Assembly: GCA_964540725.1 (NCBI GenBank)
Contig: CAZINU010000001.1
Coordinates: 159,419 to 223,418, forward strand
DNA from: an uncultured Candidatus Peribacteria bacterium
GTDB lineage: Bacteria; Patescibacteriota; Gracilibacteria; BD1-5; UBA2023
DNA length: 64,000 nt
Reading direction: 5' to 3'
The position numbers and the translations under genes were made by a program. Positions 9,614 to 59,308 of the stretch are shown here, in pieces (position 1 is the stretch's first letter; each line of letters begins with the position of its first letter). The notes beneath the pieces were generated by a model. It was not told the origin of the DNA. It saw only the letters and a program-made list of their open reading frames with translations, and searched no databases.

Positions 9614-9810
9614 GGCGGGAAAGGGTAGGGGGTATTTACGAAAAAAGAATTCGTCCAGGCGAATTCCTTGCTTCGTTTCTGCCGACTATTGTACGGGTTT
9701 TCGGAATTTTGCAAGGCGTGGTCGCGAAAAAATCCCACGTTCAACGGTACCGGGCATTTTTCCGAACGTCAAGCCGTCTTTCTGGTCAGGAAGTTCGGCC
9801 ATATGGTAGG

Positions 9811-11028: not shown

Positions 11029-11262
11029 GCGGATTCGAACCCGCTCGAAAGCGTCGATGCCGGGATGGATCGAGGAGGCATTCCGAATCGTTCCAACGAC
11101 CCGTTTCCACTATGAAAAAGTCCCCTTGCGTACTCCGGCGGAAAGCCGGGATTCGGAGGGGGACCATGTTACCGGAGGGTGTTTTGTGTGAGTACGTTGA
11201 CCAGTTAGCTGATAACGGTGGCGCACCGTCGCGGCCGGTACCGCGACGTCGCAAATTACAGC

Positions 11263-13197
11263 CTACTTTCCCCGCCGAGTCAACCGTTTTTTCGAATCCG
11301 CTCCGGAGTCTCCCCGATCACCTGACGCCGCCGTTTCCGGCTCGAAATCGATGCGTCCGTACGCGCGTTCGACCGAGACGAGCCGAACCCGGAGCCTCGT
11401 TCCGAAGGCGGGAAATTCGGATTCGCGAACCCGTCCCCGTCCATTTTTCGTCCCGAGATAAACCGCCCCTTCGATGCCGTTTTCGAGTCGCACGTAGTAC
11501 GCGTAACGGGACCTTCCGACGACCGTGGCATCGAACGATTCGCCGATATGGCGTTCCATGTATCGGGCGGAGTCGAACGATTCGACCGTCCGTTCGAGTT
11601 CTTCGGCCCGCCGCTCGGTTTCGGAGCACCGGTTCGCGACTTCCGGCAGCATTGCCGCGAGGCGGGTCTTTTCGGTCGAATCGAGCCGCTTCCGTATCCA
11701 ATCCTTGATAATCCGGTGGGCGACCAGGTCGGGGTACCGGCGGATGGGCGACGTGAAATGGGTGTAGTACTCGAGTGCGAGGCCGTAGTGGCCGAGCGGC
11801 TTTTCCGAATACCGGGCTTTCGAGAGTTTCGAAAGGAGAAGCCGTTCGACGGGCGGAAGGTTCGGAATCCGTTTGAGGGCGGAATACGCTTCCCGAACGT
11901 CCTTGGGCCGCGCTCCGGATTTCGGGAACCGGATGCCGTACGACGCGAACAGTTCGGAAAGTTCCAGATTCTTTTCTTCGGACGGCGGTTCGTGCACGCG
12001 GTAGATGAAGGGGGCGAATTCGGAGAGGGATTTCGAAATTTCCTCGTTCGCGATGACCATGAACGTTTCGATGAGCCGGTGCGAAGCCACGCGTTCGCGT
12101 TCGCGGATTTCCAAAGGCTCGCCGGAGGCGTCGAGTTCCACTTTCAATTCCGGCAGGTCGAAGTCGATCCGCCCCTCTTTTTCGCGGCGCCGGTCGATTT
12201 TTTCGGCGAGTTCGTAGGCCGAATCGACGAGCGCGAGAATTTCCGGGGTCGGCGCGGCGGACGAACGGTCGCGTTCGTGCCAGGCTTGGACTTCTTCGTA
12301 CGTGCAGCGCCGGTTCGACCGAATTTCGGTCTCCTCCAGCCGCTTCTTCCGAACGTTCCCGTCCGGGTCGATTTCCATGAATACCGACAGGCAGAGCTTC
12401 CTTCCTCCCGGATGGAGGGAGCAGAGGTCGTTCGAGAGCCTTTCCGGAAGCATGGGCACGACGCGGTCCGACAGGTAGCACGACGTTCCGCGTCGGAACG
12501 CCTCCCGGTCGAGCGGACTTCCGGCTCGGACGTACTCCGCCACGTCGGCGATGTGGACGCCGAGTTCGTAACGTCCGCCGCCCAGGCGCTCCACGGAGAT
12601 GGCGTCGTCCAAATCCTTCGCGTCGGCGCCGTCGATGGTAATGACGACGCGGTCCGACAAATCGCGTCGCCTCGGGGCCGAATCGGCGTCTTCGGACAAT
12701 CGGGAAGCTTCCGAAAGGACGCGCTCCGGAAAGACCGTGGGAATCCCGCTTTCGCGTACGAGGATTTCCCGCTCGGTCCGAACGTCGTCGGAACGCCCGA
12801 TGCGTTCCGTGACCGTGGCGTTCGTTTTCGCGCCGAACCCTTCGACGCGTACCGAAACCGTTTCGCCATCCCGGGCGCCGCCGATGCGTTCCATGGGAAC
12901 GAAGAGGCGGGCGCCCTCCGGAACCTTGGTCTCCACGAAGGCGTACGGCCGTCCGCGGACGGGTCTGAGGATTCCGAAAATCGGTCCTGGCCCGCGCCGG
13001 AGGATTTTTACGATCTTCGCTTCGGCATCCCGCCCTTCTTCCGCCCGGCGTACCGGTACCGCCTCAACGCCATCGCCGTCGAACGCGTCGCCGCGGTTTC
13101 GGGATCCTACGAAAAAGACCGTCCCGTCCTCGGATTCGAGTCGGCCGTATCTCGGGTCGGTTTGGCGGTAGGTTCCGCGGATGGGGCGCTTGGACAT
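11263..13197 (-). CDS. rnr: Ribonuclease R (RNB family 3'-5' exoribonuclease with C-terminal S1)
   Basis: A 644-aa ORF with ITIDGADAKDLDDAIS and HFTSPIRRYPDLVAHR RNB motifs and a C-terminal S1-like segment. Confidence 0.9.
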   Translation of the reverse strand: MSKRPIRGTYRQTDPRYGRLESEDGTVFFVGSRNRGDAFDGDGVEAVPVRRAEEGRDAEAKIVKILRRGPGPIFGILRPVRGRPYAFVETKVPEGARLFVPMERIGGARDGETVSVRVEGFGAKTNATVTERIGRSDDVRTEREILVRESGIPTVFPERVLSEASRLSEDADSAPRRRDLSDRVVITIDGADAKDLDDAISVERLGGGRYELGVHIADVAEYVRAGSPLDREAFRRGTSCYLSDRVVPMLPERLSNDLCSLHPGGRKLCLSVFMEIDPDGNVRKKRLEETEIRSNRRCTYEEVQAWHERDRSSAAPTPEILALVDSAYELAEKIDRRREKEGRIDFDLPELKVELDASGEPLEIRERERVASHRLIETFMVIANEEISKSLSEFAPFIYRVHEPPSEEKNLELSELFASYGIRFPKSGARPKDVREAYSALKRIPNLPPVERLLLSKLSKARYSEKPLGHYGLALEYYTHFTSPIRRYPDLVAHRIIKDWIRKRLDSTEKTRLAAMLPEVANRCSETERRAEELERTVESFDSARYMERHIGESFDATVVGRSRYAYYVRLENGIEGAVYLGTKNGRGRVRESEFPAFGTRLRVRLVSVERAYGRIDFEPETAASGDRGDSGADSKKRLTRRGK

Positions 13198-14072: not shown

Positions 14073-14873
14073 ATGGAATCGAAATTTTCCCTTGCCCTGG
14101 GCGGCGGAGCCGCCCGAGGACTCGCGCATATCGGCGCCATCCGCGCGTTCGAGGAATCCGGTTTCCGGCCATCGGCCGTCGCCGGCACCAGCATGGGCGC
14201 TATCGTCGCGGCGTTGCTCGCGTTCGGAAAAACGTCCAGCGAAATGGTTGGAATCGCGGCGTCCGTACCGTATTTCAAACTGCTCGACTCCGATCTTCGG
14301 TCGGGACTCATCGGTGGGAAAAAGATTGAAAAATACCTTCGGACGCTTTTTGGAGACGCGAAGATCGAAGACGCGAAGATTCCGCTCGCCATCGTCGCAA
14401 CCGATATCCTCACGGGCGGGAAGCGGGTATTCCGGGAAGGCGACGCAGTATCGGCCATTCGGGCTTCCATCGGAATTCCGGGCGTTCTCAAGCCCTTCGA
14501 ATACGATGGAACGCAGTACGTCGACGGCGGGATTTCCGAAAACCTTCCGGTCGAAGAATTGCCGGACGGTCCCGTACTCGCCGTATCGGTCTTGCGCGAC
14601 GTCGGCCGGCCCATTAAAACCCGGGCGAAGGTTCTCGGATTCGAATGGAACCACGCCATCTTCGGCATGGGATACCAGATTCTCCAAAAGACCATCGATA
14701 TCATGATGGCGCAAAACGAGGCCCGATCCCTCGCGAGCCGCCCGGGCGTCACGCTCCTCCATCCCAGGTTCGAGGGCATCGATTACTACGAATTCCATCG
14801 ACATGCCGAAATCGTCCGAATCGGTTACGAAACCGCCAAGGCCGCGGCGGAAACCCTCCGTTTTCCAAAATAA
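14073..14873 (+). CDS. Patatin-like phospholipase
   Basis: The product has LALGGGAARGLAHIG (oxyanion GGGxRG), GTSMG (GxSxG nucleophile) and a later DGG motif. Confidence 0.85.
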   Translation: MESKFSLALGGGAARGLAHIGAIRAFEESGFRPSAVAGTSMGAIVAALLAFGKTSSEMVGIAASVPYFKLLDSDLRSGLIGGKKIEKYLRTLFGDAKIEDAKIPLAIVATDILTGGKRVFREGDAVSAIRASIGIPGVLKPFEYDGTQYVDGGISENLPVEELPDGPVLAVSVLRDVGRPIKTRAKVLGFEWNHAIFGMGYQILQKTIDIMMAQNEARSLASRPGVTLLHPRFEGIDYYEFHRHAEIVRIGYETAKAAAETLRFPK

Positions 14874-15968: not shown

Positions 15969-17434
15969 CTTTTCTGGGAGGGGACGTTCTTTTTTCGGAT
16001 TTTTTTCTGGACCTTCGCTCCGTCCAACTTCGCTCCCGAAGGATCTTCGCTGACGTAGAGGGCTTCGTCGAACCATTTCGCCCGACGGGAGAGCGATTCG
16101 AACGGTTCGGTCAGAAGCTCGTGGCTCCGTCATTCGTAGTAGGAAACCTCGGTCAGCTTTCCGTCCGTTCCGATTTTTCCGCCGACGATGATGCCCGTAT
16201 GCTGTCCGACGTACCCGACGACGCCCCTTCCTTCCGGAGTCGTCCATTCGAGTCGGGCGAATCCGCGGTTCGGATCGTCGGTCATCGCGTACCAGAATAC
16301 GACGGGGTTTCCCTTCGCGAGACTTTTCACGATGGAGGCCGCGTCGAACGTGCCCTTGTCGATCTTCAATCCGTACCGTTTCAATTCCCTTCGGACGTAG
16401 GGGAGGGTCCCGTCGGCGTGGATTCCGTATCCGGTCAGCTTTTTCGGATTGGAACTCTGCCGACCGTCGATCCGTCCGACGAACCCCTTTTCCGGATCCG
16501 ACCATACGCGCGCTCCGCCCCGGTATTCGGGAAGTTCCGGAAACGAAGGGAGAAGGAGGACGACGGCTTCCTCCGCGATGGGGGATTCGCCCTTTCGGAG
16601 CCGATACGAATTCAGGAGGTCGCGGAGGGAGTTCGATTCGCACGAAAGGGGGTAGGCCTGCTTCGTATGCGGGATGTTTCCGGGAACGGAGAGTTTTCCG
16701 TCGAAATTCAGGAACCGTTTGCGGGCATAGGCGTACGCCGCGAAGTAGCGGGTTTGGGGGCCGACGAGCTCCCGTTCGATCGTTTTGCGCATGGCGTCGA
16801 CTTTTGCCGCGTCAAAGACCGGAATCCCGAGTTCCTCGAGAGTTCGGAGGGCGGCTTCGTCGGAGGGCGCCGAGGTCTTTCCTTCGTACGCCTTCCGAAT
16901 CGCGGCCGGCAGGGTTTTTCGACGTTTTTCCACGGATTTCGAAACGTCGCCTCCCGCTTCCCTCAGGGAAAGGAGGATATGGGCGTACGCTCCGAACAAC
17001 GCCCCGTCCTCCTTGAGGGCGGGCGCGGCAAGAATGCGTTTTTGGAGGTTCGCGAGATAGGCGGGATGGATTTCGGCCTTCGCGTCGATTTCCGAGACCA
17101 TCTCGAAGTTGGTGCGGAAGCGTTCCCTCGTCTGCGCCGGAGCGTTCCCGTACCGGGTGAGCACGTAGGCCGGAAGGCGTTTCTTCGCGAGCGCGTCGGC
17201 CAGCCGGTTGAGACTCTCCGCCGCGCGGAGCTTGCTTTCCCCGCCCGTTCCCGACATCCCGTCCGTTTTTCGTTCCGGAGCGGGAATTCTTTCGGATACG
17301 GGGGAGGGGATTCCGGTTCCGGAACCCGATTCGGATTCCGTGCCGGAAAGCGCTTCCGTCGGCCAGGCGGCGGAAGCGAGGAGGGCGGCGGAGGAAATCG
17401 TCGCGGCCGCGAAGGCCGCCGGGGCGAGGCGCAT
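15953..17434 (-). CDS. Secreted protein with C-terminal C39-like (papain-fold) peptidase domain
   Basis: A signal peptide (MRLAPAAFAAATISSAALLASAAW) begins at ATG 17434. The C-terminal region has QAYPLSCESNSLRDLL...GQHTGIIVG. A TGA at 16130 precedes 58 more codons to TAA at 15953. Confidence 0.6.
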
Positions 17435-17526
17435 GCTTTTGGATCGATTTCGGCGGAGTATAGGCACGTAAGGGCGTTTGTCGAAAAAAGGCGCCCGATT
17501 TTTCGGATTTCGGATATCATGCCGCC

Positions 17527-18360
17527 ATGGATGCCAAGATTTATGCCCACCCTTCGGTGCTGGACGGAAATTTCGGAAACAACGCGTTCGGACGTTTTTC
17601 CGACGCTCCGAACGAACTGTTCGTTCCGCACCGGACATTCGGAACCCTGGACGACGTCCGCCCCGGCTCGAAACCTGCCTTTCGGGAATTCGGAACGGGC
17701 GGTTCGCCGGTCGAATATCCGGGATTGGAGGCGTTCGTTTCCGCCCGGTGGAACGGAATTCCCCTTCACGTGTTCGATAATCACAACCACGCGCTCGCGT
17801 TCTGGTGCGAAGCGTTTTCGAACGGCGTTTTCGACCGGGGGGCGATTCTCGCGCATATCGACATGCACTCCGATCTTTGGCCGAACGAAAGCGATCTCGA
17901 TCTTTCCCGATCGGGCGACGCCGCCTACGTGGAAGCCTTCGTGAACGAAAAAACCTCCGTCGGAACCTACGTGGAGCCGGCCATGCGTTCCGGAATGTTC
18001 GCCGAATTCGTTCGCGTTGAAGGGGAGGGGGACCTGCGTCGGGAATGGGCGAACGTCGGAATCGGAAAGTACGGTCCGGAAGTCTTTCCCAATGCCGTCG
18101 AATCTCCGAACGCCCCCGTTGCCGAAGTTCGCGACAACCTTTCGGAAGGTCCGTACCGGGGTGGGAAGCCCTTTCCGGACATCGTGTTGAATCTCGATCT
18201 CGACTTCTTCGCGCCGGATCTGGAGGACGTTCCGTTCGAATTGAAGCGGGACGTCATTTTGGCCTTCGCCCGGCGTTCGAAGGCAATTACCGTCGCCACG
18301 AGCCCGTGCTTCATCGAGCCGGGTCGGGCAATTTCGGCGCTTCGGAACATTTTCGGATAG
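17527..18360 (+). CDS. Hypothetical protein, UPF0489/arginase-fold-like metal-binding motifs
   Basis: The 277-aa product has HVFDNHNHALAFW, HIDMHSD and LDLDFF. The family assignment is from memory only. Confidence 0.5.
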   Translation: MDAKIYAHPSVLDGNFGNNAFGRFSDAPNELFVPHRTFGTLDDVRPGSKPAFREFGTGGSPVEYPGLEAFVSARWNGIPLHVFDNHNHALAFWCEAFSNGVFDRGAILAHIDMHSDLWPNESDLDLSRSGDAAYVEAFVNEKTSVGTYVEPAMRSGMFAEFVRVEGEGDLRREWANVGIGKYGPEVFPNAVESPNAPVAEVRDNLSEGPYRGGKPFPDIVLNLDLDFFAPDLEDVPFELKRDVILAFARRSKAITVATSPCFIEPGRAISALRNIFG

Positions 18361-18457: not shown

Positions 18458-18483
18458 GAAAAACCCCGCCCTTTCCGGGCGGG
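18458..18483 (-). terminator. Rho-independent terminator directly after the E1-like gene
   Basis: On the minus strand CCCGCCC-ggaaa-GGGCGGG is followed by GTTTTTC. It begins 10 nt after the TGA at 18494. Confidence 0.65.
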
Positions 18484-18493
18484 TGGAAACTCG

Positions 18494-19312
18494 TCACTTC
18501 GCGGCACAAACGCACTCCGGGTGCGGAGGCAGTTCGAACCGACGGCTCGAAAGGGGCGCTTCGAGAATTCCGGGGATGCCGGAAACCGAGAATACGATCC
18601 AGTTCGAACCGATGGGCGGAAGGGCGTGTTCGGTTCCTTCGAGCAGGAGATCGAGCGAAGCCCGCGAAGCGGTCTTCGCGAGAAACGACTGGTCGATACC
18701 GATGCCCGGAGCCGTTTTGGCATCGCGGGAGGAAGAACAGTCGGCCTTCCCGCCGGTTTTGCGGAACGTTTCGAGAAAATCCTTTCGGTTTTGGTATTCG
18801 AGGAAGCACGAATAACAGGCCGATTTTGGTCGGCAGACGAGAATTTCGCCTCCGCACCCGCGCTCGAACATGCTGACGAACACGGCGGCCGTTCCCGATT
18901 CCCTCGCGATTTCGCCGGAATAGGCGCGCGAAGCGTCGGTATCGGTTCCGACGACGACGAGGTCGGATTCCGCGACCGCCCGTTCGAATTCGGTACGGGC
19001 ATCGAAGACGCTTTTCGGAAACGCGAGAACGTCCGGAAGCGGCTCGAGCGAATACCGTTCGAGGAGCCGCTTGGCCGCCTCGGCTTTGTTTTGGCCGACG
19101 TACTCGGCTCCGCATGCGTGGCGGACCAGGTTGCCGGGCTCGAGGACGTCGCCGTCGAAGAGCCGGAACCGTTCGATTCCGCACCTGAAGAGGTCGAGCG
19201 CGATTTCGGCCGCCCCGCCGAGACCGACGACGGTCACGGTTTTTCCGGAGAGCGGGGCATGGAGGGGGTCCCGGCGCGCGTTGGGTTGGCGGTAGGGCGA
19301 TTCGGTACGCAT
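18494..19312 (-). CDS. E1-like ThiF/MoeB-family adenylyltransferase
   Basis: AAAGGA-N6-ATG lies at 19312. The product has GKTVTVVGLGGAAEIALDL (Rossmann GxGxxG), FDGDVLEPGNLVRH, VVVGTDTD and a CYSC motif. It ends in TGA. Strict table 25 would extend it to TAA at 18287. Confidence 0.8.
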   Translation of the reverse strand: MRTESPYRQPNARRDPLHAPLSGKTVTVVGLGGAAEIALDLFRCGIERFRLFDGDVLEPGNLVRHACGAEYVGQNKAEAAKRLLERYSLEPLPDVLAFPKSVFDARTEFERAVAESDLVVVGTDTDASRAYSGEIARESGTAAVFVSMFERGCGGEILVCRPKSACYSCFLEYQNRKDFLETFRKTGGKADCSSSRDAKTAPGIGIDQSFLAKTASRASLDLLLEGTEHALPPIGSNWIVFSVSGIPGILEAPLSSRRFELPPHPECVCAAK

Positions 19313-19418
19313 GGAAGTTCCTTTCGCGGTTCGTTCTTTCCCGTCCGGAGTTGCCGGGTTTCGGGAGGGCGTTGTGGCGTCCGAGCGAGATTCTCGCGTT
19401 CGGACGCCGGATTCCGCC

Positions 19419-19667
19419 TTATCGGCGGCATTTCGCGAAGCTTCGGAAGTTTCGGCCGATACGGGAGAAAAAATCGGCGTCTCCGCGTTCGGCGGCCTCT
19501 TTCGCTTCGGGGGTGGTATCGGCCGCCACCGCTCCGCCGGGACCGACGACGAGCGACGTCGACTCTCCCCGGGTAAAGGGGAGGATGAGCCGTTCGGTCG
19601 CCGTGACGTCGACCGTGCGGCGGTGGCCGTCGATGCCGAGGTCTTCGAGTTTGAGGGGTTGTGCCAT
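19419..19667 (-). CDS. Small 82-aa protein between the E2-like and E1-like genes
   Basis: It has AAAGGAG-N6-ATG and a TAA stop. There is no C-terminal GG and I recognised no motif. It is in frame with the upstream E2-like ORF. Confidence 0.45.
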   Translation of the reverse strand: MAQPLKLEDLGIDGHRRTVDVTATERLILPFTRGESTSLVVGPGGAVAADTTPEAKEAAERGDADFFSRIGRNFRSFAKCRR

Positions 19668-19724
19668 GGTTCGCTCCTTTCGTTTGGCATGGAAAAAGGG
19701 GTTCCGGCCGTCTGGCCGGAACGT

Positions 19725-20189
19725 TCAGGCTTCGGGGAGTATCCACTTCCCCGTCGCGAGTTTTACCTCGTAGGCGTGGAGCCAAGCGGCCGCGAGGTTC
19801 AGGACGGTGACGACCGAGAACTTCGTTTCCCAGCCTTGTCCCGAGGCTCCGTCGGGCTTCATGACGCAGAGAACGATTCCGTCGGAATCTTCGTCGTACC
19901 CGAGATGGTGGAATTCGTGCATCCCGGAGGATTCGCACGTTTCGATCACGTCGGAATCGCAGACGGCGACCCTCGGATAGGCGTAGGGATACTCCTTCGG
20001 ATACTCCGCCCGAACCCGGTACGCGTTCCCGCTATGGGTAACGAAGAACCCTTCGGCGAACAGCCGGTCGCCTTCCGTCATGAGGCGGAAGGCCGGGAAC
20101 GCATCGGCGAGCATGTCGTGCTCGTACGCGAGGCGCTTCAGGTATTTTTCGGGATTCGGTTGAACCCAGTTCGGAAGTACGGCGTTCAT
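19725..20189 (-). CDS. Prokaryotic E2-like (UBC-fold) protein
   Basis: It has AAAGGAGA-N4-ATG. The 154-aa product has EYPKEYPYAYPRVAV followed by HHLGYDEDSDGIVLCVMKP (candidate catalytic Cys) and a W...VLNLAAAWL helix. It ends in TGA. Confidence 0.65.
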   Translation of the reverse strand: MNAVLPNWVQPNPEKYLKRLAYEHDMLADAFPAFRLMTEGDRLFAEGFFVTHSGNAYRVRAEYPKEYPYAYPRVAVCDSDVIETCESSGMHEFHHLGYDEDSDGIVLCVMKPDGASGQGWETKFSVVTVLNLAAAWLHAYEVKLATGKWILPEA

Positions 20190-20219: not shown

Positions 20220-21425
20220 TTACGAGAGTCCCTCCGGAACTTCGCCGTCGCGGGGGACGGCGTTCCGGCGTACGAGTTCCGGACGGCGGGGCGGTTCGTT
20301 CCGACGGTTCGAGGTTCCTTCGCGGAGGGCGTCGGCTGAAGCCCTCGCCCTTTCCCGCCTTTGACGTATGACCTCCGAAAACCAATTCGGATCCGACGTC
20401 CGCCTACTGCGTTGGACTGGGGGTTCCGATGAGGAAGCGTCCGGCTCGGCAGTTTCCGGGGGGTTCGTCGGAAGGGGTACGGAACCGGCGATTTCCGGCG
20501 ACTCCGGGGGGTCGAAAGATTCCGGACGGCTTGGAGTTTCGCCGTTCGTTCGGAACGCCTCCCGTTCGTTTCTCGAAGGCCGGCCCGACCGTGGCGCACG
20601 CACGAGCCGGCGCCCGGAGCCGTTCGCCGCGTACGGCGGAACCGGCCAGTCGCCGTCTCCGCCTTCGCTTCTTGGTCCCTTCCACACCCGCTTCCATACG
20701 AAAACGGCTGCGGCCGCGAGCATGCCGGCAACGGCAAGGGCGGCCATTCTTCCGGGCGGTTTGGAAAAATCTTGCGGCGGACGGATGGGCGGATGGTCGA
20801 ACCCACCCCCGTTTTCAAGGGGTTCCGGGCTCGGTTCGGACTTCGGAGCGACCGAATCGCGGTAGACGGGCGCCGGGGCAAAATCCCTTTTCGCGGCGGC
20901 CGGAGAGGGGGGTGAAAATTTTTCGGCCCCTACGGCGGCCATCGACGGTTTCGGTCCGGTCTTCGGCTCCGATTTTTCGGCTGGTACGATCCATTCCGTC
21001 GCGGGTTTTGGCGCTATTGCCGCCGTGGACGGACCGTTTTCGGAGGGCTCCCGATCGACGGTTCGTTCGGCGGCATTTTTCGCCGACTGGGCGAGCCGTC
21101 CGAAGGTTCGGACGGCCGTTTCGAGCGTTTCGAGCGTCGAAATCCGTTCGTCCAGGGAAACGGATTCGTCCCGGTACGCCTGATGCGCCATCGTCGCGTA
21201 TTTGTCACGAAGGTCGGCCCCCATTCCCGAAATCTCCCGCCAACGGGCGGACGTTTGGGAATTCGGATCGGATTCGGCCAATGCGGCAAGTTTTTCGGCG
21301 CTCGCCGTTCCTTCCGCGGTCTTCTTCGGCAGTTCGAACGCGAATGCCGACGACCAGAAGAGAACGGCGAAAAGTACCGATACGAACGCGGCTGGCCGGC
21401 TGTTTCGAAAAGAAGTTTCCATCAT
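20220..21425 (-). CDS. Hypothetical membrane-anchored Pro/Ser-rich protein
   Basis: AAAGGA-N5-ATGATG. It has an N-terminal signal/TM (AAFVSVLFAVLFWSSAFA), a mid TM (MAALAVAGMLAAAAVFVW) and a TAA stop. Confidence 0.55.
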   Translation of the reverse strand: MMETSFRNSRPAAFVSVLFAVLFWSSAFAFELPKKTAEGTASAEKLAALAESDPNSQTSARWREISGMGADLRDKYATMAHQAYRDESVSLDERISTLETLETAVRTFGRLAQSAKNAAERTVDREPSENGPSTAAIAPKPATEWIVPAEKSEPKTGPKPSMAAVGAEKFSPPSPAAAKRDFAPAPVYRDSVAPKSEPSPEPLENGGGFDHPPIRPPQDFSKPPGRMAALAVAGMLAAAAVFVWKRVWKGPRSEGGDGDWPVPPYAANGSGRRLVRAPRSGRPSRNEREAFRTNGETPSRPESFDPPESPEIAGSVPLPTNPPETAEPDASSSEPPVQRSRRTSDPNWFSEVIRQRRERARASADALREGTSNRRNEPPRRPELVRRNAVPRDGEVPEGLS

Positions 21426-21679
21426 TCCCGTCCTTTCATGGCTTGGATGGATTCGAAGATCGCCCGGGCCCGTTCGCGTTTTTTCGCGGAATCGGCGATT
21501 TCCGGAGAATTTCCCCGGACGAGGGGCGGTTTTTGCGGTTCGCAGGTTTTTGCGGCGACCCGGGTTCCGTCGTATCCCCGGAGAATTCCGGACGGTTCGG
21601 ACCCGAACCCGCGAATCCCCAGGATTCCGCAGCCGGAAAGGGCTATGGCGCATACGAAGGCGCAAGCGAGCGTTTTCAT
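21422..21679 (-). CDS. Small lipoprotein
   Basis: AAGGA-N7-ATG. MKTLACAFVCAIALSGC is a textbook signal plus lipobox. Its TGA stop overlaps the next start (ATGATG). Confidence 0.6.
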   Translation of the reverse strand: MKTLACAFVCAIALSGCGILGIRGFGSEPSGILRGYDGTRVAAKTCEPQKPPLVRGNSPEIADSAKKRERARAIFESIQAMKGRE

Positions 21680-21691: not shown

Positions 21692-22198
21692 TCAGAGGTG
21701 GTTTCGGCGGATGGCCGAGTAGAGGGGGCGGATATCCGAAACGGATATCCCAACCTCGGGTTTCCCGAGGATTTCGGCGATTTCTTCGATGCTGATTTCT
21801 CCCGCCAATTCGGGTGACGACCGGCGTACGAATACCCGGACGGCCAACGTCGGAACGTGGCAAAGGAACGAGAATTCGAACGCTCCGGTCCTCCAACCGT
21901 TCCCGGATATCCGGGCCGCGAGCCAGGGGTTTCTCCGACCGCTTTGACCTTCGGGTTCGAAACGATCCCCGAATTCTTCGGCGGCCGCTCGGAGGTTCCG
22001 ATAGGCGTCGCCGGCGACTTTCGAATTCGTTCGGATAGCTCTTCCGAGCGGTCCGCGGATGAGGGAAAAGATTCCCAGGATCGACGATTTCATGACCCAG
22101 AAGGCGGTGGCGAAAATCGCGATTCCCCGACCGAGCGGGCCGGAGAGCAGCGCCCTGGAGAGAACCTCGGCACGGAAGTATTCGTTGAAAACGGACAT
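21692..22198 (-). CDS. Hypothetical protein with C-terminal sigma-70 region-4-like HTH
   Basis: AAAGGAGG-N5-ATG. The C-terminal ELAGEISIEEIAEILGKPEVGISVS resembles an ECF sigma region 4. It ends in a TGA that overlaps the next SD. Confidence 0.45.
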   Translation of the reverse strand: MSVFNEYFRAEVLSRALLSGPLGRGIAIFATAFWVMKSSILGIFSLIRGPLGRAIRTNSKVAGDAYRNLRAAAEEFGDRFEPEGQSGRRNPWLAARISGNGWRTGAFEFSFLCHVPTLAVRVFVRRSSPELAGEISIEEIAEILGKPEVGISVSDIRPLYSAIRRNHL

Positions 22199-22302: not shown

Positions 22303-24408
22303 TTATCCGTCTTCCGTTCTGATGGAAATCGGAACCAGATCGGGGCCGTATTCGCCACCCCCCGCTCCGACCGTCTTTTCCGAGAGGTGGACGGGAAGGT
22401 TTCCGGACGATTCCGGCAAACCAGCGCTTCTTCGTCGGACGCGTTCTTCCGGAAGAACCTTCAGGACTTTCCAGAACGTCAGGAAGTATCCGCGACCGGA
22501 TTTCGCCCTGAGGACGACCGCGTTTTTTTCGAGCGCTTCCCTGGGGAGCGGGCCCGAATACGGATTGGCGATGGCGTACAAAGTGGCGAGCGCCGTTCCC
22601 GAATACATGGAGGCCGGTTCCGCCGACGGATGGTTCAAATCGCCCTCGCTCGGGCCGAACGGGGAACCGGGATGCTTGTGCCAATTGAACGGACGGCAGA
22701 ATCCGAGGAGCGGATGTCCGCCGCTCTCCGTCCCCGCCCGCTTGAGGAATTCGAGCGCGAGGGAACGCTCGTATTCGCCGTAGTCCGCCCCCATCCGTTT
22801 CCGGTAGGCGTTCCGAAAGAACGAGAGGTCCCAGATTTCGTGCGACACGGGCGTCGCGCGTTCTTGGAAGAGGTGCGGAATTTCAAGATTCGAAAGTCGG
22901 AAAACGCCGTTCGATACCGAATACGGGCTCGCGAACCAGAATCCGCCGGTTTCGTTTCCGGAACTCCGTATTTCGGGTGAATCGAGACGTTCCGCAATCG
23001 TTTCGAGGTCGCGAGTCGAAACCGAAAGTTCCGAAATTTCGCGGAACTCCCGCTGCTTTTCCCGCTCCCTTTCCGCCATGGCCGAAATCATCAGTCGGTC
23101 CAACCGTTTCGAGAGCGCCGTTTCGAACCGTCCGTTCGAAAGTTCGGCGGTTTCGAATCCGAGCGATTTCGCATGCCGTCGAATTCCGTGGTCGTACCAT
23201 GCGAGGGAAAGCGCCGAGCCCCCGTCGCCGTGCACGAGCGTCGCGGCGAAATTTCCGCCGACCGTCTCCGTTCGCATCGTGACCGATCAGGAGAGCGAGG
23301 AATCGGAAACCACGTCGGAAGGAGCGGGGGGAGAGAATCCTTTCGAAAGGAGAAATCGCACGAACGTTCGATAGGTTTCCATCCGAAGCTTCCGTTCATG
23401 GGCGATTTCCGCGAGCGGGAGACCTTCGTCCAGCGTTCGAACCGGGAGCGCGGTTTTTTCGGTTGCCCCCGTTCGGGGCGCGGTACTTCCGTTCGGAGCG
23501 AGGACGTTTCCCGATTCGTCCGAACCGTCCGTTCGCGGGTTTTTCGGAAGCCGTTCGATGGTTTCGAATTTCGGAAGGAGTTTTCGGTATTTCCGGGGTT
23601 CGGGAGCGCCCCCGACCGTTTCGCCCGCTCTCGCCGCATCGTCCGTCCGGGCTTCCGGCTTCGGGGCGTTTTCGGCATTCCGTCCATCCGGTCCGATAGC
23701 CGTTCCGACCGCTTCGAAACCGAACCCGATCCGCGTTCGCGGCGGTTGAGACGTTCGTCCGACCGAACGGCCCAGGAGAAATCCCGCGAACGCGGCGAAC
23801 GCGGCGAAGGCGAGTCCGCCGAACGCACCGGAACCGTTCGGAAGCGCTCGTTCCGGAACGCGTTCCGCGGACGCCGTTTCGCCGTTTTCCGGCGGATCTT
23901 CGACGGCCTTCCGGGCGGATTCGGAAACGTCCGAACGGTCGGAACGGGACTTTGCCACGGATTCGGCCGGTCACTTTGGAAGACCGGTCGTTTCTTCAAT
24001 CGGTTTGGGCGTCGTGCCGAAATTTTTCCGTAGGTTAGAAGGCGGAATCGCGACGCCGCCGCCCGCCCGTTCTGAAACTTCTTCCGTCGACGCTTCGGGT
24101 CGTCCGCCCGCCGTTTCCGGAACGGCCGTGACCCTCCGATTCGGGATTTCGCCGTTCTCGACGGCGGCTGGAACCGAAAGGGGGTCCTTGGGAAATTCTT
24201 CCGCCACCGTTTTCTCCGAAACCGGCCCGATCGGAGTGGGGGCCAATTCGACCGGATCCGCCTTCGTTTTCATGGGCGAGCAGGCGGAGAGGACGGCGGC
24301 GAAGACCGCGGAGCGGAGGAAGTTCGATCGGGCGCCGACGGTTTTTCCGGGCGGATTTCCGAATGTTTTCGAAGGGGGCATGAAGGCTTTTTGAAGATGC
24401 GGGAACAT
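22303..24408 (-). CDS. Large (~700 aa) putative lipoprotein/secreted protein read through two TGAs
   Basis: Fragments 23971-24408 (lipobox AAVLSAC), 23287-23958 and 22303-23277 share a frame. No SD or convincing start follows the TGAs at 23971 and 23287. The stop is TAA at 22303. Confidence 0.55.
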
Positions 24409-24484
24409 GGGCGCGGTGGTGGTACGGCGCCGATTCTCCGTCTTCCGGAAATGAAAAAAACGGAAAAAGCCACGAAAAAGCCAC

Positions 24485-24510
24485 GAAAAAACCGGGGAAT
24501 TCCCCGGCTT
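24485..24510 (-). terminator. Rho-independent terminator after the MBL gene
   Basis: The palindrome CCGGGGAATTCCCCGG is followed on the minus strand by T6. Confidence 0.6.
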
Positions 24511-24542
24511 TTTCGATTGGAACCGCGTTGGCCAAGTTCCGA

Positions 24543-27500
24543 TTACTCTCGGCCTTCTTCCATTTCGAGCATTTGTCGCATTTCCATTTCGAGCGTTTCG
24601 AAAAGTTCCCCGTTCTTGTCCATTCGGTGGATCACGAGAAGGTTTTCGAAAGATTTGAGGGGATCGCCCCGGTTCTCTTCCGCGTCGCGGGCACAGTACC
24701 GAATTTGGTCCATCGCCGCGCGAATCGGCTTATATCCTTCGAGCGAGCGGATGGTATCGTCGACCGCCATTCGAATGCCGTATTGAACGGCGGTTTCGTC
24801 AATCGTGGGAAGTTCGGAATCCCAGTCCGATTCCGAAATGTCCAAGGTATCCGGATTCTCGAGTCGGGATCGAAGTTCGGCGACGCGCTGTTCGTACGTC
24901 TTCCGGCGTCCGCGAGCCTCGTCCAGTTCGAGCGTCCGGCGCTCCCGGTTCTTTCCGAATTCGAAAGCTCGGCTCTGGTGCCTTTGGAGATCTCTCCGCG
25001 CCCAATGCAGGGTGCTGTCGCCCCCCTTTCCCGATACGTATACCCGCTTCTGTTCGTCCGAACCGAATTCTTCCCGAAGAAGCGGCGAAAGTCCGGAGAG
25101 GAGAGCGTCCCGATCGGAGAGCAGCCGTTCCATCTCCGCGATTCCGTCCCCAAGCGGCGCCGTCGCGATCGAAATCGCGCCGTCGGACGAGCCTCGTTCG
25201 CGCAGTTCCTTTCCTATTTGGAACATCCGTTTCCGAAGGGCCGATATTTGCGATTCGAGATGTTCCGGAACGTACGAGAGGATTCGGTTCAGCGATTCGA
25301 CGGCGGAACGTTCCGCCCGCTCCCTTTCCTCGAGTCTGGCGATCGCGTTTTTAATCCGCTCGACGTCGTTCTCCGCCTTAGCCTCGAGTTGTCTTGCTTC
25401 TGCAAGGTCGCGCTCAAGCTTCTTTATGGCGTCCTGAATCCGTTCTGCCTTCCCCGGACGATCAATGCCCCGAAGCGGGCGTTGTCCGGTCTGTACGAAC
25501 CATTTTACATCGTCGGAAGTTCGGAGTCCGGCGAATATTTCGGAAACCATCCGGTTTTTTTGGATGACGGATTCCCTCATCGCATGAGCCCGCTCACGAA
25601 GCGTCGTCAGGATTCCGTCGCTTTCCTCTCCGGTCGCCATCTGCCCGCTTCTTCGTTCGTGGCGTTTAGCCCGCCTCCGGTCATGCGGGTGCCGGCGTTC
25701 GACGGAGGTTTTCCGAAGTAGCTTGGACATCCCTTCGATTTCATTCTCGAGCCTCCCTATTTCCGCCTCATCCTTCCGTATCGACCGGACCAGTTCGAGT
25801 CCGTCGAGCAGGAATTTCGCGCCCACGAGCCCGACCTTCGAATGGGCCTCCGAGAACATCGATTGCAATCGGAGCTCGTAGGCGCCCAACAGTTCCCGAG
25901 CCTTCGCCGCGATTGTCTTCGCCCGCTTGGCTTCCGAGATTGCGTCGCCCGCTTCCTTTTTCGAGCCGCTCGCTCCGGGGGCGATGGGGGCTTCTCCGTT
26001 CGAGTCCGGCGTCCGCGACGGCTTTCCGCCGCCTTGCTCGTTCGTTCTTGCCGGAACGTTCCGAGGTTTTCGCGGGACGGATTCGCGAACCGTTTCCCGT
26101 ACTTTTCTCGCAACCTTTTTCCGAACCAGTTCGCTTCCGCGGAAAATGAGCCGCTCTCCGAGTTCCGGGATGACGAGGCTTTCCGGATAATACCCGTAGT
26201 CGTAGAGGAATGCCGCGAGATCCGCCTGGGCCCCGTCGTCGCCGTGGATAAGGACGATCTTCTGATTGGGCGCGAGCTTCAGGCTTTCCAGATAGGTCAG
26301 GTTGTCTTCCGCGTCGGCGTGCCCGGAAAGGAACCGGTAGCTCTCGATCTTTGCCCGGATAAGCACGTTCGCATCCTCGATTTCGACGAAACGTTCGTGC
26401 TCCGGAACGTCCGTCCGGACGTCCGGACCGTCGTCTTCCATACGCGTTCCCGTGACATTCAAGAGTTTTCGGCCCACGGTTCCCTTCGCCATGTATCCGG
26501 GAAACAGGAACGCCGATTGCGAATCGCCCCCGAAACTTTTCAAGTACGAGACGATGGGGCCGCCGTTCGCCATTCCGGAAGCGGTGACGACGATCTTCCG
26601 CTCATTCCGGTCGTTTTTGTGGAATTCCCGATCCTCTTCCGTCGAGATGATTTCGTAGTATCCGTGGCTCGGATCCAGGTATTCGATGAAGTCTTCCAGA
26701 TTCTTCCGTTCGCGTTCGAGGTAGTCGCTTCCGAGCGCGTGGCGGATGGCATCGGCTTCGGGGAGCGAGAGTTCCGAAAGCCTTCGGCGGGCTGAGAAGA
26801 CGTAATTCCGAAGGTGCTTTACGCCCGACGGGGAATCGACGTAGATTTTCACGTTCTTGTCGATCTTTCCCTCGGCCTTCAGTTTCACCGTCCGGTAGAG
26901 GATATTTTGAAGCCGGTCGAGCGAGAAGCAGCTTTCGAAGACCCGGCGATGGGTTTTCGTCCGCTCCACGAGCCCGGTTTCGAATTCGTCGCGCCCCTTC
27001 TCGAAATCTTTGCGAACCCGGTCGCGGTAGGTGGATTCGATGACCGCCACGTCGATGGGAACGTCCGCCGGCGGAACGGGAACGCCGCAGGGGTGGATGT
27101 CCCACTTGTACGACCCGACGTCGCCCGAAAAGAGCACGTGCTTGTAGTCGCCGTGCAAATCGTCGTAAATTCGAAACAGCACGCTCGTGCTTCCGATGAT
27201 GTGGCCGGCGTCGTAGAACCGGAACGCGATCTTTCCGGGGACGACGTCCTTCCAGCCGTCCGATATTTCGTGGGTGGTGATATGGTCGAACGCCCGCTCT
27301 ACCGCCGTCAGATCGTACGGGGGAGGAGGGACCTCGAACCGCTTCTTCCAATTGGCGTCGTTTCGGTCGATTCCGTATTCTTCGAGCGTTTGGATCGCTT
27401 GCCGATACCGGGTCGCCGGCGGCGCGTCGTGGGTTCTTTCCATGCGGTTTCCCGATCCGTCGGTACTTCTGGCGACCTGGGGAACCCCGTCGCCCCGGGA

Positions 27501-27923: not shown

Positions 27924-28084
27924 GAAAACCCCGCGTTTATGTATAACAAGAAAATCTTTTATCCAGAAGTCAATAATACGCAAGCCTCATTTTGACAATC
28001 ATTCGTTTTTGCTTAAAAAAATCTTGATTTCCGAGCGGAACGCATATATTTCACATCGAAGGAACGCTCCTAAATTCTTCTCCC

Positions 28085-54497: not shown

Positions 54498-54515
54498 CGG
54501 CTTTTTTCGTCATTT

Positions 54516-55671: not shown

Positions 55672-55740
55672 AGTAAGGGAAAAATGAAGGTGTAATCGGC
55701 GTTTTCTGCGCCTCGTTATCTCCAATGGATGCCACGGACG

Positions 55741-55835
55741 TTTTCTCAAATCTTTTTCCGACTTTTTTCGCGTTTCGACACGCGACCGCACGCCGAAGCG
55801 GAAAAGTCGGATTTTTGAAAAAAGATTTGAGAAAA
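55741..55835. repeat. Long imperfect inverted repeat inside the island
   Basis: TTTTCTCAAATCTTTTT..CCGACTTTT (55741-55766) matches AAAAGTCGG..AAAAAGATTTGAGAAAA (55802-55835). The two arms flank a GC-rich 35-nt spacer. Confidence 0.5.
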
Positions 55836-59263: not shown

Positions 59264-59308
59264 ATTTTCGTTTTACTGGGTAAGATTTCGGACAAAATAT
59301 CCGGATTC

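Follow-up and report, generated by a model that had tools for sequence, protein, structure and literature searches.

The window, a stretch of 64,000 nucleotides from a Candidatus Peribacteria contig, carries on its minus strand a cassette that, judging from sequence comparisons, is probably an operon for membrane-associated, ubiquitination-like protein conjugation, in which the activating and conjugating enzymes form a split pair of the Cap2 type. Most likely, the cassette is a protein-conjugation system that uses a tag other than ubiquitin. The operon extends from the terminator after a beta-CASP gene (around 24480) to the terminator after the E1 gene (around 18465), and encodes a JAMM/JAB peptidase, three membrane proteins or lipoproteins, an E2 whose Cys108 is invariant, a small protein of about 80 aa and a minimal ThiF-type E1; no effector, E3 or target is recognisable in it. 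Genomic context was taken from homologous loci; an exact look-up of the window E2 in the contig index gave no match. The features are as follows.

24484-24515, minus strand: strong terminator-like hairpin with a 14-bp stem, 3' of the beta-CASP gene; upstream boundary of the cassette
23971-24408, minus strand: 145-aa ORF with a lipoprotein-like signal (LSAC), again in the JAB frame; split off by a TGA (23971-23973) and four codons
23287-23958, minus strand: ORF with a TM helix (GLAFAAFAAFAGFLLG) in the JAB frame; split from the JAB ORF only by a TGA (23287-23289) and three codons
22303-23277, minus strand: ORF of 324 aa with a JAB/JAMM metallopeptidase domain (motif, own HMM, hhalign, orthologues)
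21692-22198, minus strand: 168-aa protein with a conserved C-terminal domain, membrane-protein-like (orthologues; no family match)
21422-21679, minus strand: lipoprotein of 85 aa with lipobox LSGC (positional orthologues)
20220-21425, minus strand: signal-anchored protein of 401 aa with coiled-coil, TM and Pro-rich parts (TM-Pro; orthologues in all close loci)
19725-20189, minus strand: 154-aa E2 of the E2-CBASS type, a conjugating enzyme with a UBC fold (PADLOC, PF26395, alignment, PDB match)
19701-19722, minus strand: 9-bp GC-rich hairpin with a T-run immediately 3' of the E2 stop; possibly an internal attenuator
19419-19667, minus strand: small protein of 82 aa, candidate modifier (conserved RBS/ATG, alignments, third-position substitutions)
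18494-19312, minus strand: E1, single-domain ThiF-type adenylating enzyme, 272 aa (Pfam ThiF, PADLOC Cap2, PDB relatives)
18465-18483, minus strand: terminator-like hairpin 3' of the E1 gene, the probable end of the operon

The E1 and E2 enzymes

A preliminary description of this DNA proposed that a UBC-fold-like protein, a small protein and a ThiF-type adenylyltransferase follow the gene logic of bacterial ubiquitin-like conjugation modules, and suggested profile searches of the three proteins. These searches give matches for both enzymes (Pfam ThiF, PADLOC and PF26395), and the proposed logic holds. For E2, the UBC-fold assignment comes from the PADLOC CBASS E2 model PDLC00877 (E 3.2e-12) and from PF26395 (E2-CBASS), a precomputed assignment carried by the identical protein P0001 as well as by all 12 homologues. 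The local copy of Pfam gives only a weak Prok-E2_B match (15.5 bits, under its cut-off), and the NCBIfam models give no matches at all. In the PDB, the protein matches 8hsb_B best, which is the E2 from E2-CBASS, and its Cys108 aligns with C101 of SmE2. Cys108, His94 and Gly97 are invariant in the E2 alignment, and the protein carries the C-terminal motif AAWLHAYE. A scan of viral contigs found no relatives of the E2 family.

The length of E1, 272 aa, is counted from a Met that is also used by the orthologues. The 398-aa ORF predicted with table 11 was rejected, its N-terminal extension being artefactual: the orthologues start at the later Met. The adenylyltransferase assignment is confirmed by Pfam ThiF (PF00899; 3.7e-19, 69.3 bits against a cut-off of 28.1) and by the PADLOC Cap2 E1-E2 models (down to 1.9e-25). 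The nucleotide-binding, Arg-finger and Asp motifs are conserved, namely GLGGAAE at residues 30-36 (the nucleotide-binding Gly loop), NLVRH at 61-65 and DTDASR at 124-129, as is the Zn motif (C166/C169/C267/C269); Cys67 and Cys192 are kept in four lineages. Its closest solved relatives are the Cap2 structures 7tsq, 7tsx and 7to3 (E about 1e-6), and PaaA is also among its PDB sequence matches. In NCBIfam the best match is NF058523 (6A-MBL), with 56 bits against a cut-off of 320, and the ThiF/MoeB models match weakly, all far under their curated cut-offs. By these comparisons, CBASS Cap2 and E2-CBASS are the closest relatives of the two enzymes.

The sub-threshold ThiF/MoeB matches would suit a role in sulfur-carrier or cofactor biosynthesis of the MoaD/ThiS type, in which E1 thiocarboxylates a small carrier. 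However, besides the low scores, the small protein has no GG C-terminus, an E2 and a JAB are part of the cassette, and no sulfurtransferase, MoaE, ThiG or rhodanese is present in any of more than 15 loci. This reading is effectively refuted by the context, and we regard it as the most improbable of those considered here.

The small protein and the membrane partners

The 82-aa ORF is confirmed as a real gene. Its RBS (AAGGAG) and ATG start are conserved in 9 loci, its substitutions relative to locus L030 fall mostly at third codon positions (18/30 and 12/15), and it lies between E2 and E1 in every locus examined. The gene is conserved, and purifying selection acts on it. The family alignment has 12 members. 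It shows PL.L..LG near the N-terminus, then the hairpin motif L.VGP.G.V and an acidic linker that varies; ..FRSF, which comes next, is invariant, and in the window it is followed by a tail AKCRR. Members differ in the length and composition of the central region, and the sole invariant C-terminal element is R-[ST]-F. This element is the exact C-terminus in 9/15 listed members; the remaining ones have non-conserved tails of 1, 1, 2, 5, 5 and 7 aa after it, and the P0025 protein continues for 32 aa (YSS... to the end).

The preliminary description had remarked on the lack of a Gly-Gly end in the small protein. This is borne out, the end being the R-S/T-F motif with or without a tail. The alignment indicates that the non-GG end is no defect and that the family has an invariant R-S/T-F end followed by clade-specific, disposable tails. 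Note that a C-terminal Phe instead of Gly would be unusual as a substrate for a conjugating E1.

Neither Pfam, NCBIfam nor PADLOC gives a match to the small protein. An AF2 model from a 2-sequence MSA has a pLDDT of 48.8 and contains only a hairpin and a C-terminal helix. On this model, the tag does not look like a beta-grasp Ubl; it looks like a mostly disordered peptide that has a docking motif at its N-terminus, a single beta-hairpin and, at the C-terminus, a tail of basic and aromatic residues. The evidence against a beta-grasp is weak, because the AF2 monomer models are of low confidence. The family is rare, since a word-indexed search found 2 sequences and an exhaustive HMMER search 7 real representatives. 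Pup is likewise a small, largely disordered tag that is defined by its C-terminal residues and not by a beta-grasp fold. However, it is ligated through a side-chain carboxylate by the glutamine-synthetase-like PafA, with no E1, E2 or JAB, and the resemblance is one of functional analogy only.

By homology with Cap2, Bil and the eukaryotic E1/E2 enzymes, conjugation would proceed in four steps. E1 would bind the small protein and adenylate its C-terminal carboxylate, the adenylated end being ...F-R-S-F once the short variable tail is removed. The acyl group would then pass to Cys108 of E2, possibly through Cys192 in the crossover-loop region of E1, and from E2 to an amino group of the target. 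Finally, the JAB would trim the precursor tail, reverse the conjugation, or both.

Upstream of E2, the preliminary description listed an HTH protein, a lipoprotein and a Pro-rich membrane protein. The last two stand, the lipoprotein with its LSGC lipobox, but the first does not: the 168-aa protein has no HTH match and looks like a membrane protein. Orthologues of it are present in all loci, L035 and the rearranged L033 among them. For the lipoprotein, orthologues by position, 72-102 aa long, are found in L003, L005 and L030, and the stop of its gene is overlapped by 4 nt by the start of the TM-Pro gene. The TM-Pro protein occurs in versions that contain MORN repeats in L035 and L033, and its extreme C-terminus, ..PRDGxVPxxL[RS], is conserved in most lineages and absent in L035. 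None of the membrane proteins has a match in Pfam, NCBIfam or PADLOC. The set of JAB, tm17x, lipoprotein/MORN, TM-Pro, E2, small protein and E1 recurs in L035, and L033/L034, a code-25 organism, has it too, with the genes arranged differently. Since the set is retained in rearranged form in this code-25 relative, the membrane proteins belong to the module. We may speculate that these co-conserved proteins are a sensor, a scaffold or the targets.

The AAWLHAYE motif is also found in a more distant E2 family, in which E2 is likewise paired with a JAB, an E1 and a small upstream protein. The latter ends in an invariant ...W-G followed by two variable residues, or in ...W-Y, and one E1 of this family bears two tandem copies of the small module. 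In an hhalign comparison of the two small-protein families, the hairpin motif alone is aligned, with a probability of 8-9%, a value too low to establish that the two are homologous.

These data bear on an alternative in which there is no free tag and the C-terminus of a larger operon protein is activated by E1/E2, as Cap2 does with the CD-NTase. The candidates would be TM-Pro, with its ..PRDGxVPxxLR end, or the 168-aa protein, with the small protein acting as adaptor, inhibitor or chaperone. Such priming in the CBASS style is in keeping with the nearest relatives, Cap2 and E2-CBASS, for which a full-size enzyme and not a Ubl is the substrate, with the conserved C-terminus of TM-Pro and with the small protein having no detected beta-grasp fold. 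However, the invariant element of the small protein is located at the very C-terminus with only disposable tails after it, which is the signature of an activated C-terminus; its gene invariably separates E2 from E1; the TM-Pro motif is missing in L035; and the tandem small modules fused to E1 in the distant family are reminiscent of polyubiquitin. We consider this alternative unlikely.

The PaaA match of E1 brings up another alternative, a peptide-modifying pathway of the RiPP, MccB or PaaA kind. Here, E1 would adenylate the C-terminus of a precursor peptide to yield a modified, secreted peptide, with the JAB removing a leader or follower and the membrane proteins serving in export or immunity. 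The short and probably disordered substrate with a non-Gly end and a cleavable tail would fit this scheme, as would the many membrane proteins of the operon. On the other hand, a catalytically intact UBC-fold E2 with an invariant Cys is foreign to known RiPP pathways, E1 has no N-terminal peptide-clamp/RRE domain (the ThiF alignment begins at residue 22 of 272), and the operon encodes no transporter ATPase or peptidase-containing exporter. This alternative is accordingly quite improbable, and conjugation of the small protein is preferred.

The JAB peptidase and the TGA codons of its frame

The absence of a JAB/Otu peptidase, one of the points on which the cassette had been described as differing from known modules, has to be revised. 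The ORF at 22303-23277, which belongs to the same transcription unit, has a complete JAMM signature (NETGG ... WHKHPGSPFGPSEGDL). In the motif E..HxHx7Sx2D, Glu109 lies in NETGG and the remaining positions are H200-x-H202-x7-S210-x2-D213. The ORF was detected with our own HMM, which was built from the JAB domains of distant loci. An hhalign comparison of its family with bona fide Prok-JAB domains (A4 versus A6) gives a probability of 82% and an E of 1e-5 over 105 columns that cover both motifs. Orthologues (P0017 and P0018) occupy the equivalent position in L030 and L031. Pfam gives no match at E<=0.1, NCBIfam and PADLOC likewise give none, and searching the PDB sequences with the profile of the JAB family brought up no meaningful match; the AF2 model (3-sequence MSA, pLDDT 38.7) is unusable. 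The motif and the profile comparison argue that a divergent JAB/JAMM peptidase is encoded that Pfam overlooks.

The JAB gene is missing from one subclade, and its presence can be compared with the tails of the small protein. In the three intact JAB-containing Peribacteria loci (the window, L030 and L031), the tails are 5, 2 and 7 aa, whereas in eight loci without a JAB the small protein ends at RSF, in one of these with an additional R. An exception is L033, which has a JAB and yet a tail-less small protein ending in FRSF-TAG. Loci with a JAB thus mostly have variable tails of 1-7 aa after FRSF, in a correlation that is imperfect and comprises few independent evolutionary events.

Upstream of the JAB ORF, the same frame continues. 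About 30 aa at the C-terminus of the ORF at 23287-23958 can be aligned to the N-terminal portion of P0017, a homologue without interruption, and the TGA at 23287-23289 aligns with a Gly codon (GGC) of L030. This ORF probably encodes the N-terminal portion of a JAB protein that is anchored in the membrane. The next ORF, at 23971-24408, has a low coding score that is still the best in this frame; it may be a gene of its own or may form the opening segment of a 2-TM JAB protein of about 700 aa. In L030 and L031, an analogous 2-TM region precedes the JAB, in one frame with TGAs. Altogether, the JAB frame is broken by TGA in the window, L030, L031 and L035; the interrupting codons are exclusively TGA, and the frame and its motifs are retained downstream of them. 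Since these codons interrupt the frame in the window, the protease may be poorly expressed or unexpressed.

The genomes with an in-frame TGA in the JAB frame otherwise use TGA as a stop. Code 25 was rejected for the window because TAA, TAG and TGA are used interchangeably at the same positions at the ends of orthologous genes. A suppressor tRNA-Gly(UCA) was not found: the window contains only a tRNA-Glu and a tRNA-Gln, and the related loci contain no tRNAs. For other TGA-joined segments in the window, the codon-usage score gives the same signal as adjacent genes in the same frame, in a genome that is GC-rich. If the TGAs of the JAB frame are truly translated, they would provide a rare window on ambiguous UGA decoding in a sister lineage of code-25 bacteria.

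The broken frame could also mean that the cassette is a decaying, non-functional defence relic that is held by synteny alone, as might the subclade without a JAB and the lack of a recognisable effector. However, E2, the small protein and E1 are under strong purifying selection, and their catalytic residues are invariant in lineages at 26-70% identity; moreover, the gene set survives rearrangement, and only TGA, with frame and motifs persisting beyond it, interrupts the JAB. We therefore regard decay as very unlikely.

Comparison with known systems and possible role

To our knowledge, every E1/E2 conjugation system so far characterised in bacteria (CBASS Cap2, Bil and Bub) attaches either a beta-grasp Ubl or the C-terminus of a signalling enzyme, and all are antiphage systems of free-living bacteria. 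Judged by their defining features, the cassette fits none of CBASS, Bil, Bub, 6A-MBL and PRTRC, in agreement with the earlier suggestion of an undescribed variant.

Type II CBASS with Cap2/Cap3, together with E2-CBASS (PF26395; 8hsb; 7tsq/7to3), resembles the cassette in having a JAB peptidase partner and a substrate C-terminus that is not the canonical GG of ubiquitin. However, Cap2 is a fused E2-E1 polypeptide, whereas the E2 and E1 of the cassette are encoded by separate genes with the small gene between them in every one of at least 15 loci. No CD-NTase or cyclic-nucleotide effector was found among the cassette proteins (PADLOC, Pfam) or in related loci, and PADLOC detects no CBASS component in the cassette besides the E1/E2 matches. 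A dedicated protein of about 80 aa, membrane and lipoprotein partners, a CPR host and fixed synteny further distinguish the cassette from CBASS.

The Bil antiphage system consists of the Ubl BilA, the E2 BilB, the JAB BilC and the E1 BilD, without an E3 (10.1101/2024.11.21.623953). As in the cassette, the four roles are on separate genes and there is no E3. In contrast, BilA is a beta-grasp, ISG15-like Ubl with a C-terminal Gly, whereas the small protein ends in R-S/T-F and has no beta-grasp detected in its low-confidence AF2 model; BilD is a multi-domain IAD-AAD-CYS E1, whereas the cassette E1 has a single ThiF domain in 272 aa; and both cassette enzymes belong to the Cap2/E2-CBASS lineage.

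Type I Bub (6E.1) has a Ubl-E2 fusion, a JAB-E1 fusion and a DUF6527 protease. The same architecture, in which the small protein precedes E2 or is fused to it and a JAB-E1 fusion follows, is found in distant E2 relatives (L012, L013, L015 and others). However, the Bub E1 and E2 have no catalytic Cys and use an oxyester mechanism, whereas Cys108 of the cassette E2 is invariant; the Bub Ubls are much longer than the small protein, and the cassette has no match to the DUF6527/PF20137 serine protease.

The 6A-MBL system (Iyer et al. 2006, row 6a; NF058523) combines an E2-E1-JAB triple-module protein with a specialised metallo-beta-lactamase, and in Peribacteria an MBL-fold beta-CASP gene indeed adjoins the cassette. 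In the cassette, however, E2, E1 and JAB are three unfused genes, and the beta-CASP protein is of the generic RNase J/CPSF type, matching only RNase J/aCPSF/Cas14-type models. The beta-CASP gene (24543-27983) has its own terminator, as previously described, and the 14-bp-stem hairpin was found at 24484-24515. Because of this terminator and the absence of the gene from L033 and L035, a functional tie to the cassette was rejected. A PRTRC cassette is defined by its own ThiF protein (TIGR03736), the PRTRC proteins A-F and ParB; no PRTRC model is among the NCBIfam matches of E1 at E<=1.

Taken further, the data allow the tentative proposal of a new class of prokaryotic tag in Peribacteria and Gracilibacteria (CPR). 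Its modifier would be a mostly disordered, non-beta-grasp protein of about 75-85 aa with the activated end Arg-Ser/Thr-Phe, charged by a split Cap2-type E1/E2 pair, trimmed or removed by a membrane-anchored JAMM protease and accompanied by dedicated membrane proteins. The JAMM gene would be gated in translation by in-frame UGA codons that are read as Gly at low efficiency or only with a UGA suppressor, in a lineage sister to the UGA=Gly (code 25) bacteria. If a Cap2-lineage pair does charge a short Phe-ended peptide, the known chemistry and substrate range of E1/E2 enzymes would be widened. The cassette would then be a minimal tagging system of natural origin (E1 of 272 aa, E2 of 154 aa and a tag of about 80 aa) and the first E1/E2 pathway linked to the envelope of ultra-small CPR symbionts, the cell biology of which is almost unknown.

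What the modification would serve is a matter of speculation: defence against viruses or other invaders, as in all characterised relatives, or a lineage-specific modification in envelope signalling. Homologues had been expected in conflict or mobile contexts rather than in MoaD/ThiS sulfur-carrier operons. They are indeed never found in the latter, but the former setting is seen weakly, the Peribacteria cassette being in fixed chromosomal synteny next to housekeeping genes, unlike typical defence islands. More distant E2 relatives adjoin Cas1, Cas2 and RT genes.

Gene content and boundaries of the cassette

The cassette lies on the minus strand of the window, where genes for an E2, a small protein and an E1 follow those for membrane proteins and a predicted JAB peptidase. 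The relevant features are as follows.

28085-29185, plus: CARDB-like secreted protein, divergent from beta-CASP
24543-27983, minus: beta-CASP/RMMBL nuclease, long form, 1146 aa
24484-24515: terminator-like hairpin, 14-bp stem, after the beta-CASP gene
23971-24408, minus: possible lipoprotein ORF, first in gene order
23287-23958, minus: TM-helix ORF, between the lipoprotein ORF and JAB
22303-23277, minus: predicted JAB/JAMM ORF (match to our own HMM, JAMM signature)
21692-22198, minus: 168-aa membrane protein, after JAB
21422-21679, minus: 85-aa lipoprotein
20220-21425, minus: 401-aa signal-anchored, TM, Pro-rich protein (TM-Pro); its start overlaps the stop of the lipoprotein gene
19725-20189, minus: E2, 154 aa (PADLOC CBASS E2 models, PF26395)
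19701-19722, minus: hairpin, 9-bp GC-rich stem plus T-run, between the small gene and the E2 stop, which it directly follows
19419-19667, minus: small protein, 82 aa, between E2 and E1
18494-19312, minus: ThiF-type E1, 272 aa, true start at the ATG at 19312
18465-18483: terminator-like hairpin, 7-bp GC stem, after E1
17527-18360, plus: UPF0489 gene, convergent with E1

The E2 matches the PADLOC CBASS E2 models (top match PDLC00877, E 3.2e-12), and the precomputed Pfam annotation of an identical database protein and of 12 homologues is PF26395, "E2-CBASS"; the local Pfam copy gives a sub-threshold Prok-E2_B match only. The closest solved structure to the E2 profile is 8hsb_B, the E2 of Serratia E2-CBASS, whose conserved C101 is paired in the alignment with the invariant Cys108. 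The E1 scores above the Pfam ThiF cut-off (69 bits vs 28) and aligns with the E1 half of the PADLOC Cap2 "E1-E2" models (E down to 1.9e-25); its closest solved structures are the Cap2 chains 7tsq, 7tsx and 7to3. In NCBIfam every match to the E1 is far under its cut-off, the top one being the 6A-MBL cap2-like model. The E1 contains a Gly loop (GLGGAAE), an Arg-finger (NLVRH), a Mg-binding Asp motif (DTDASR) and a four-Cys zinc site, and two further residues, Cys67 and Cys192, are kept in four divergent lineages. A 398-aa table-11 ORF was rejected as the ThiF gene, since its N-terminal extension is not conserved and overlaps the small gene. The E2/small/E1 arrangement is real and far beyond chance: the profile and PADLOC searches that the preliminary description had proposed, together with the structure matches, bear out the UBC-fold-like E2 and ThiF-type E1 that it recognized.

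The two terminator-like hairpins (24484-24515 and 18465-18483) bracket the transcription unit, and the former agrees with the preliminary assignment of a separate terminator to the beta-CASP gene. The lipoprotein and the Pro-rich membrane protein described upstream are also present, but the HTH label given to the 168-aa membrane protein is unsupported; the membrane proteins of the cassette match no family in Pfam, NCBIfam or PADLOC. The hairpin at 19701-19722 may serve as an internal attenuator, setting the ratio of E2 to tag and E1.

Homologous loci were gathered in two ways, from contigs encoding E2 homologues and by a scan of GTDB species genomes (L007-L011); the sources are Candidatus Peribacteria, "Gracilibacteria" and Patescibacteria MAGs. 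More divergent members, L035 and L033/L034, were reached through the small protein. L035 contains JAB, a 171-aa counterpart of the 168-aa membrane protein, a MORN-TM-Pro protein, E2, small protein and E1, without beta-CASP and with different flanks. L033/L034, from an organism with 36% GC and UGA=Gly, contain JAB, E2, small gene, E1, a second E2-like gene, a MORN lipoprotein, a TM-Pro protein (C-terminus ..NGEIPPELL) and a 174-aa membrane-protein counterpart, that is, the gene set of the window in a different order. The second E2-like gene (L033 9326-9772; L034 4119-4565) follows E1 and is divergent, with a weak PF26395 match and the Cys retained. Because of the gene sets in these loci, the membrane proteins and JAB are taken as belonging to the module and beta-CASP as a neighbour.

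The small protein and the putative JAB peptidase

In all homologous loci recovered, an ORF of 73-84 aa lies between E2 and E1, in each case preceded by an AAGGAG-type ribosome-binding site and beginning with ATG. Between the window and L030, a Peribacteria locus, third codon positions account for 18 of 30 substitutions in the first block of the gene and for 12 of 15 in the block after it. The small ORF represents a genuine, conserved gene. Its family is rare, because only seven true relatives emerged when 1.84 billion representatives were searched exhaustively with HMMER; the protein has no match in the profile libraries searched (Pfam, NCBIfam, PADLOC).

Alignments reveal a conserved N-terminal M-A-x-P-L-x-L..LG motif, a conserved hairpin motif (L-x-V-G-P-x-G-x-V), a linker variable in length and composition, and an invariant C-terminal motif, ...[F/M]-R-[S/T]-F. 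The AF2 model (2-sequence alignment; pLDDT 48.8) contains one hairpin and a C-terminal helix only; this low-confidence model and the variable linker argue, though weakly, against a canonical beta-grasp. The preliminary description was correct that the protein does not end in Gly-Gly. In nine of the 15 members listed, ...RSF is the exact C-terminal end; the remaining members have non-conserved tails after RSF/RTF, namely AKCRR in the window and QSHAG, TK, AAGSASI, R and G in one other member each. The tail of P0025, a family member, has 32 residues. An invariant motif followed by disposable residues resembles the pattern seen in ubiquitin-like precursors, although the residue exposed would be Phe and not Gly.

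The preliminary description had found no JAB or Otu peptidase, a point that has to be revised. An HMM made from JAB domains adjoining distant relatives of the window E2 matches ORF 22303-23277, which contains both JAMM halves: ...SGNETGGFWF, including the catalytic Glu, and FNWHKHPGSPFGPSEGDL, which fits HxHx7Sx2D. When this ORF and two database homologues are compared as a profile with nine bona fide Prok-JAB domains, the probability is 82% (E 1e-5) over 105 columns covering both motifs. Pfam reports no JAB domain at E<=0.1, a PDB sequence search returns nothing, and the AF2 model (pLDDT 38.7) is too low to use. On these sequence grounds the cassette is predicted to encode a JAB peptidase. 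Its homologues P0017 (L030) and P0018 (L031) occupy the same site, between the long-form beta-CASP gene and a 177-aa membrane-protein gene; the other Peribacteria loci (L001, L003, L005, L007-L011) have no JAB gene within +-10 kb.

State of JAB and residues after the terminal FRSF
Intact (window, L030, L031): 5, 2 and 7 aa
Absent (eight loci): none in 7/8, +R in 1/8
Heavily TGA-interrupted (L035): +G
Present, code 25 (L033): none; end is FRSF-TAG

The correlation between JAB presence and a tail, imperfect and based on few independent events, suggests that JAB trims the tail. Alternatively, JAB may act mainly as a deconjugase.

In-frame TGA codons

Window ORFs 23971-24408, 23287-23958 and 22303-23277 form one reading frame with two TGA codons as sole separators; readthrough would yield a protein of ~700 aa that has two hydrophobic stretches and ends in the JAB. 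At the position of the second TGA, L030 has a Gly codon (GGC) in the alignment. The JAB frames of L030 (~9400-11263) and L031 (~9400-11200) each contain four in-frame TGAs. One of those in L030 is the annotated "stop", whose counterpart in the alignment is Gly in the window and TGA in L035, and beyond which the conserved motif P-D-[LM]-[LV]-P-V continues. L035 (3620-5399) has five, one of them within ETGG and another within the JAMM spacer; its frame is free of TAA, TAG and frameshifts over 593 codons.

Several of these TGAs align with Gly, and conserved sequence goes on downstream. Elsewhere, TGA ends E2, E1 and the 168-aa protein gene in the window, L007-L011, L030 and L035 where orthologues have TAA or TAG, and the long housekeeping genes of L035 contain no in-frame TGA; both observations indicate that outside the JAB frame TGA is a stop codon in these genomes. 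The sister group of Peregrinibacteria/Peribacteria consists of Gracilibacteria and Absconditabacteria with UGA=Gly (PMC8080830). The in-frame TGAs may reflect low-level or conditional UGA-to-Gly readthrough that gates JAB expression, remnants of past exchange with relatives using code 25, or decay of an unusually orderly kind.

Single TGAs also occur at gene junctions. E2 and the small gene share a frame in the window (19668-19727, minus) and L010 (~10450-10500), separated only by the E2 TGA and 14-18 sense codons, and in L035 (8018-8070) one TGA joins the small gene and E1. Readthrough would give fusion proteins, but the match may be chance (1 in 3).

Proposed mechanism, relatives and genomic setting

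Gene content, catalytic motifs, conservation patterns and operon boundaries are documented directly in these loci; the steps that follow are drawn from established E1/E2 chemistry and work on Cap2, Bil and Bub. The E1 would adenylate the C-terminal carboxylate of the small protein, the acyl group would be relayed to E2 Cys108, possibly via E1 Cys192, and then be passed to a target amine, and JAB would trim the precursor tail and/or reverse conjugation. The membrane proteins might, speculatively, be sensors, scaffolds or targets.

Known systems do not accommodate the cassette. Type II CBASS is rejected since E2 and E1 are unfused and both a CD-NTase and an effector are lacking; Bil, since the E1 is minimal and neither beta-grasp nor terminal Gly is demonstrable in the small protein; Bub, since the catalytic Cys is present and DUF6527 absent; 6A-MBL, since the NCBIfam model scores far under its cut-off and a triple-module protein is lacking; and PRTRC, since no model matches. 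In its four-component conjugation the cassette would work most like Bil, but with Cap2-lineage enzymes and an apparently non-Ubl tag. A literature search found no paper describing it.

The E2 alignment also drew in E2s at 26-31% identity that have the AAWLHAYE motif of the window E2 (L012-L029), from Planctomycetota, UBP16, Neomarinimicrobiota, Jordarchaeia and (marine) metagenomes. Examples are L012 219-2999, L013 8041-11455, L014 6343-9755 and L015 5700-9082. Every such locus with enough sequence has a Prok-JAB, fused to the E1 N-terminus or as a separate gene, and an ORF of 45-73 aa is directly upstream of E2 or fused to it; L014 has two tandem copies of the small module fused to E1. At the C-terminus of the small protein of these loci stands either an invariant ...K-Q-R-x-W-G, with two variable residues after it, or ...R-W-Y / ...V-W-Y directly before the stop. 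These loci are apparently a separate, undescribed small protein/E2(Cys)/JAB/E1 operon family, parallel in architecture to Type I Bub (Ubl-E2 and JAB-E1 fusions) except that the E2 has Cys. Homology of the two small-protein families is a hypothesis, because they have only the hairpin motif in common, at an hhalign probability of 8-9%. Some distant loci adjoin Cas1/Cas2/reverse-transcriptase genes and S1-domain proteins; NYN/RNase H-like genes also adjoin some.

Such defence-like contexts, with the CBASS lineage of the enzymes, favour a defence-type role, which is speculative. Equally speculative is a lineage-specific envelope function, in keeping with fixed synteny, housekeeping flanks, the lack of a recognizable effector, and the absence of the E2 family from the viral contigs scanned. 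In Peribacteria the whole stretch from the CARDB-like gene through beta-CASP to the UPF0489 gene is syntenic (protein identities ~40-65%); gene order there is therefore no proof of functional linkage. Every Peribacteria locus has the UPF0489 and CARDB-like genes on either side of the cassette, which shows that this part of the chromosome is stable. The preliminary description would have been refuted by homologues consistently located in sulfur-carrier (MoaD/ThiS) operons instead of conflict or mobile contexts: none of the loci compared is in such an operon, nor is the cassette itself, but a conflict or mobile context is borne out only weakly, given the fixed synteny in Peribacteria.

The long-form beta-CASP protein is extended at its C-terminus by ~500 aa of SMC/LmuB-like coiled coil (PADLOC LmuB 4.9e-5); this form co-occurs with the JAB gene (window, L030, L031), and JAB-less loci have a short form of 567-602 aa. 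Further away, window positions 52000-60000 have a G+C content of 0.47-0.52 (0.56-0.62 elsewhere); Pfam matches none of the ORFs in 51873-56014, 56-60 kb contains no ORF of at least 200 aa, and a DNA cytosine-5 methyltransferase fragment (motifs ENV..QxRxR) lies at 58421-58726. The segment has likely been acquired horizontally and degraded. Other genes in the window are the following.

60327-61388, plus: LysM-LysM-CHAP cell-wall hydrolase
16130-17638, minus: 502-aa protein, weak peptidase C39-like match
14073-14873, plus: patatin-like phospholipase
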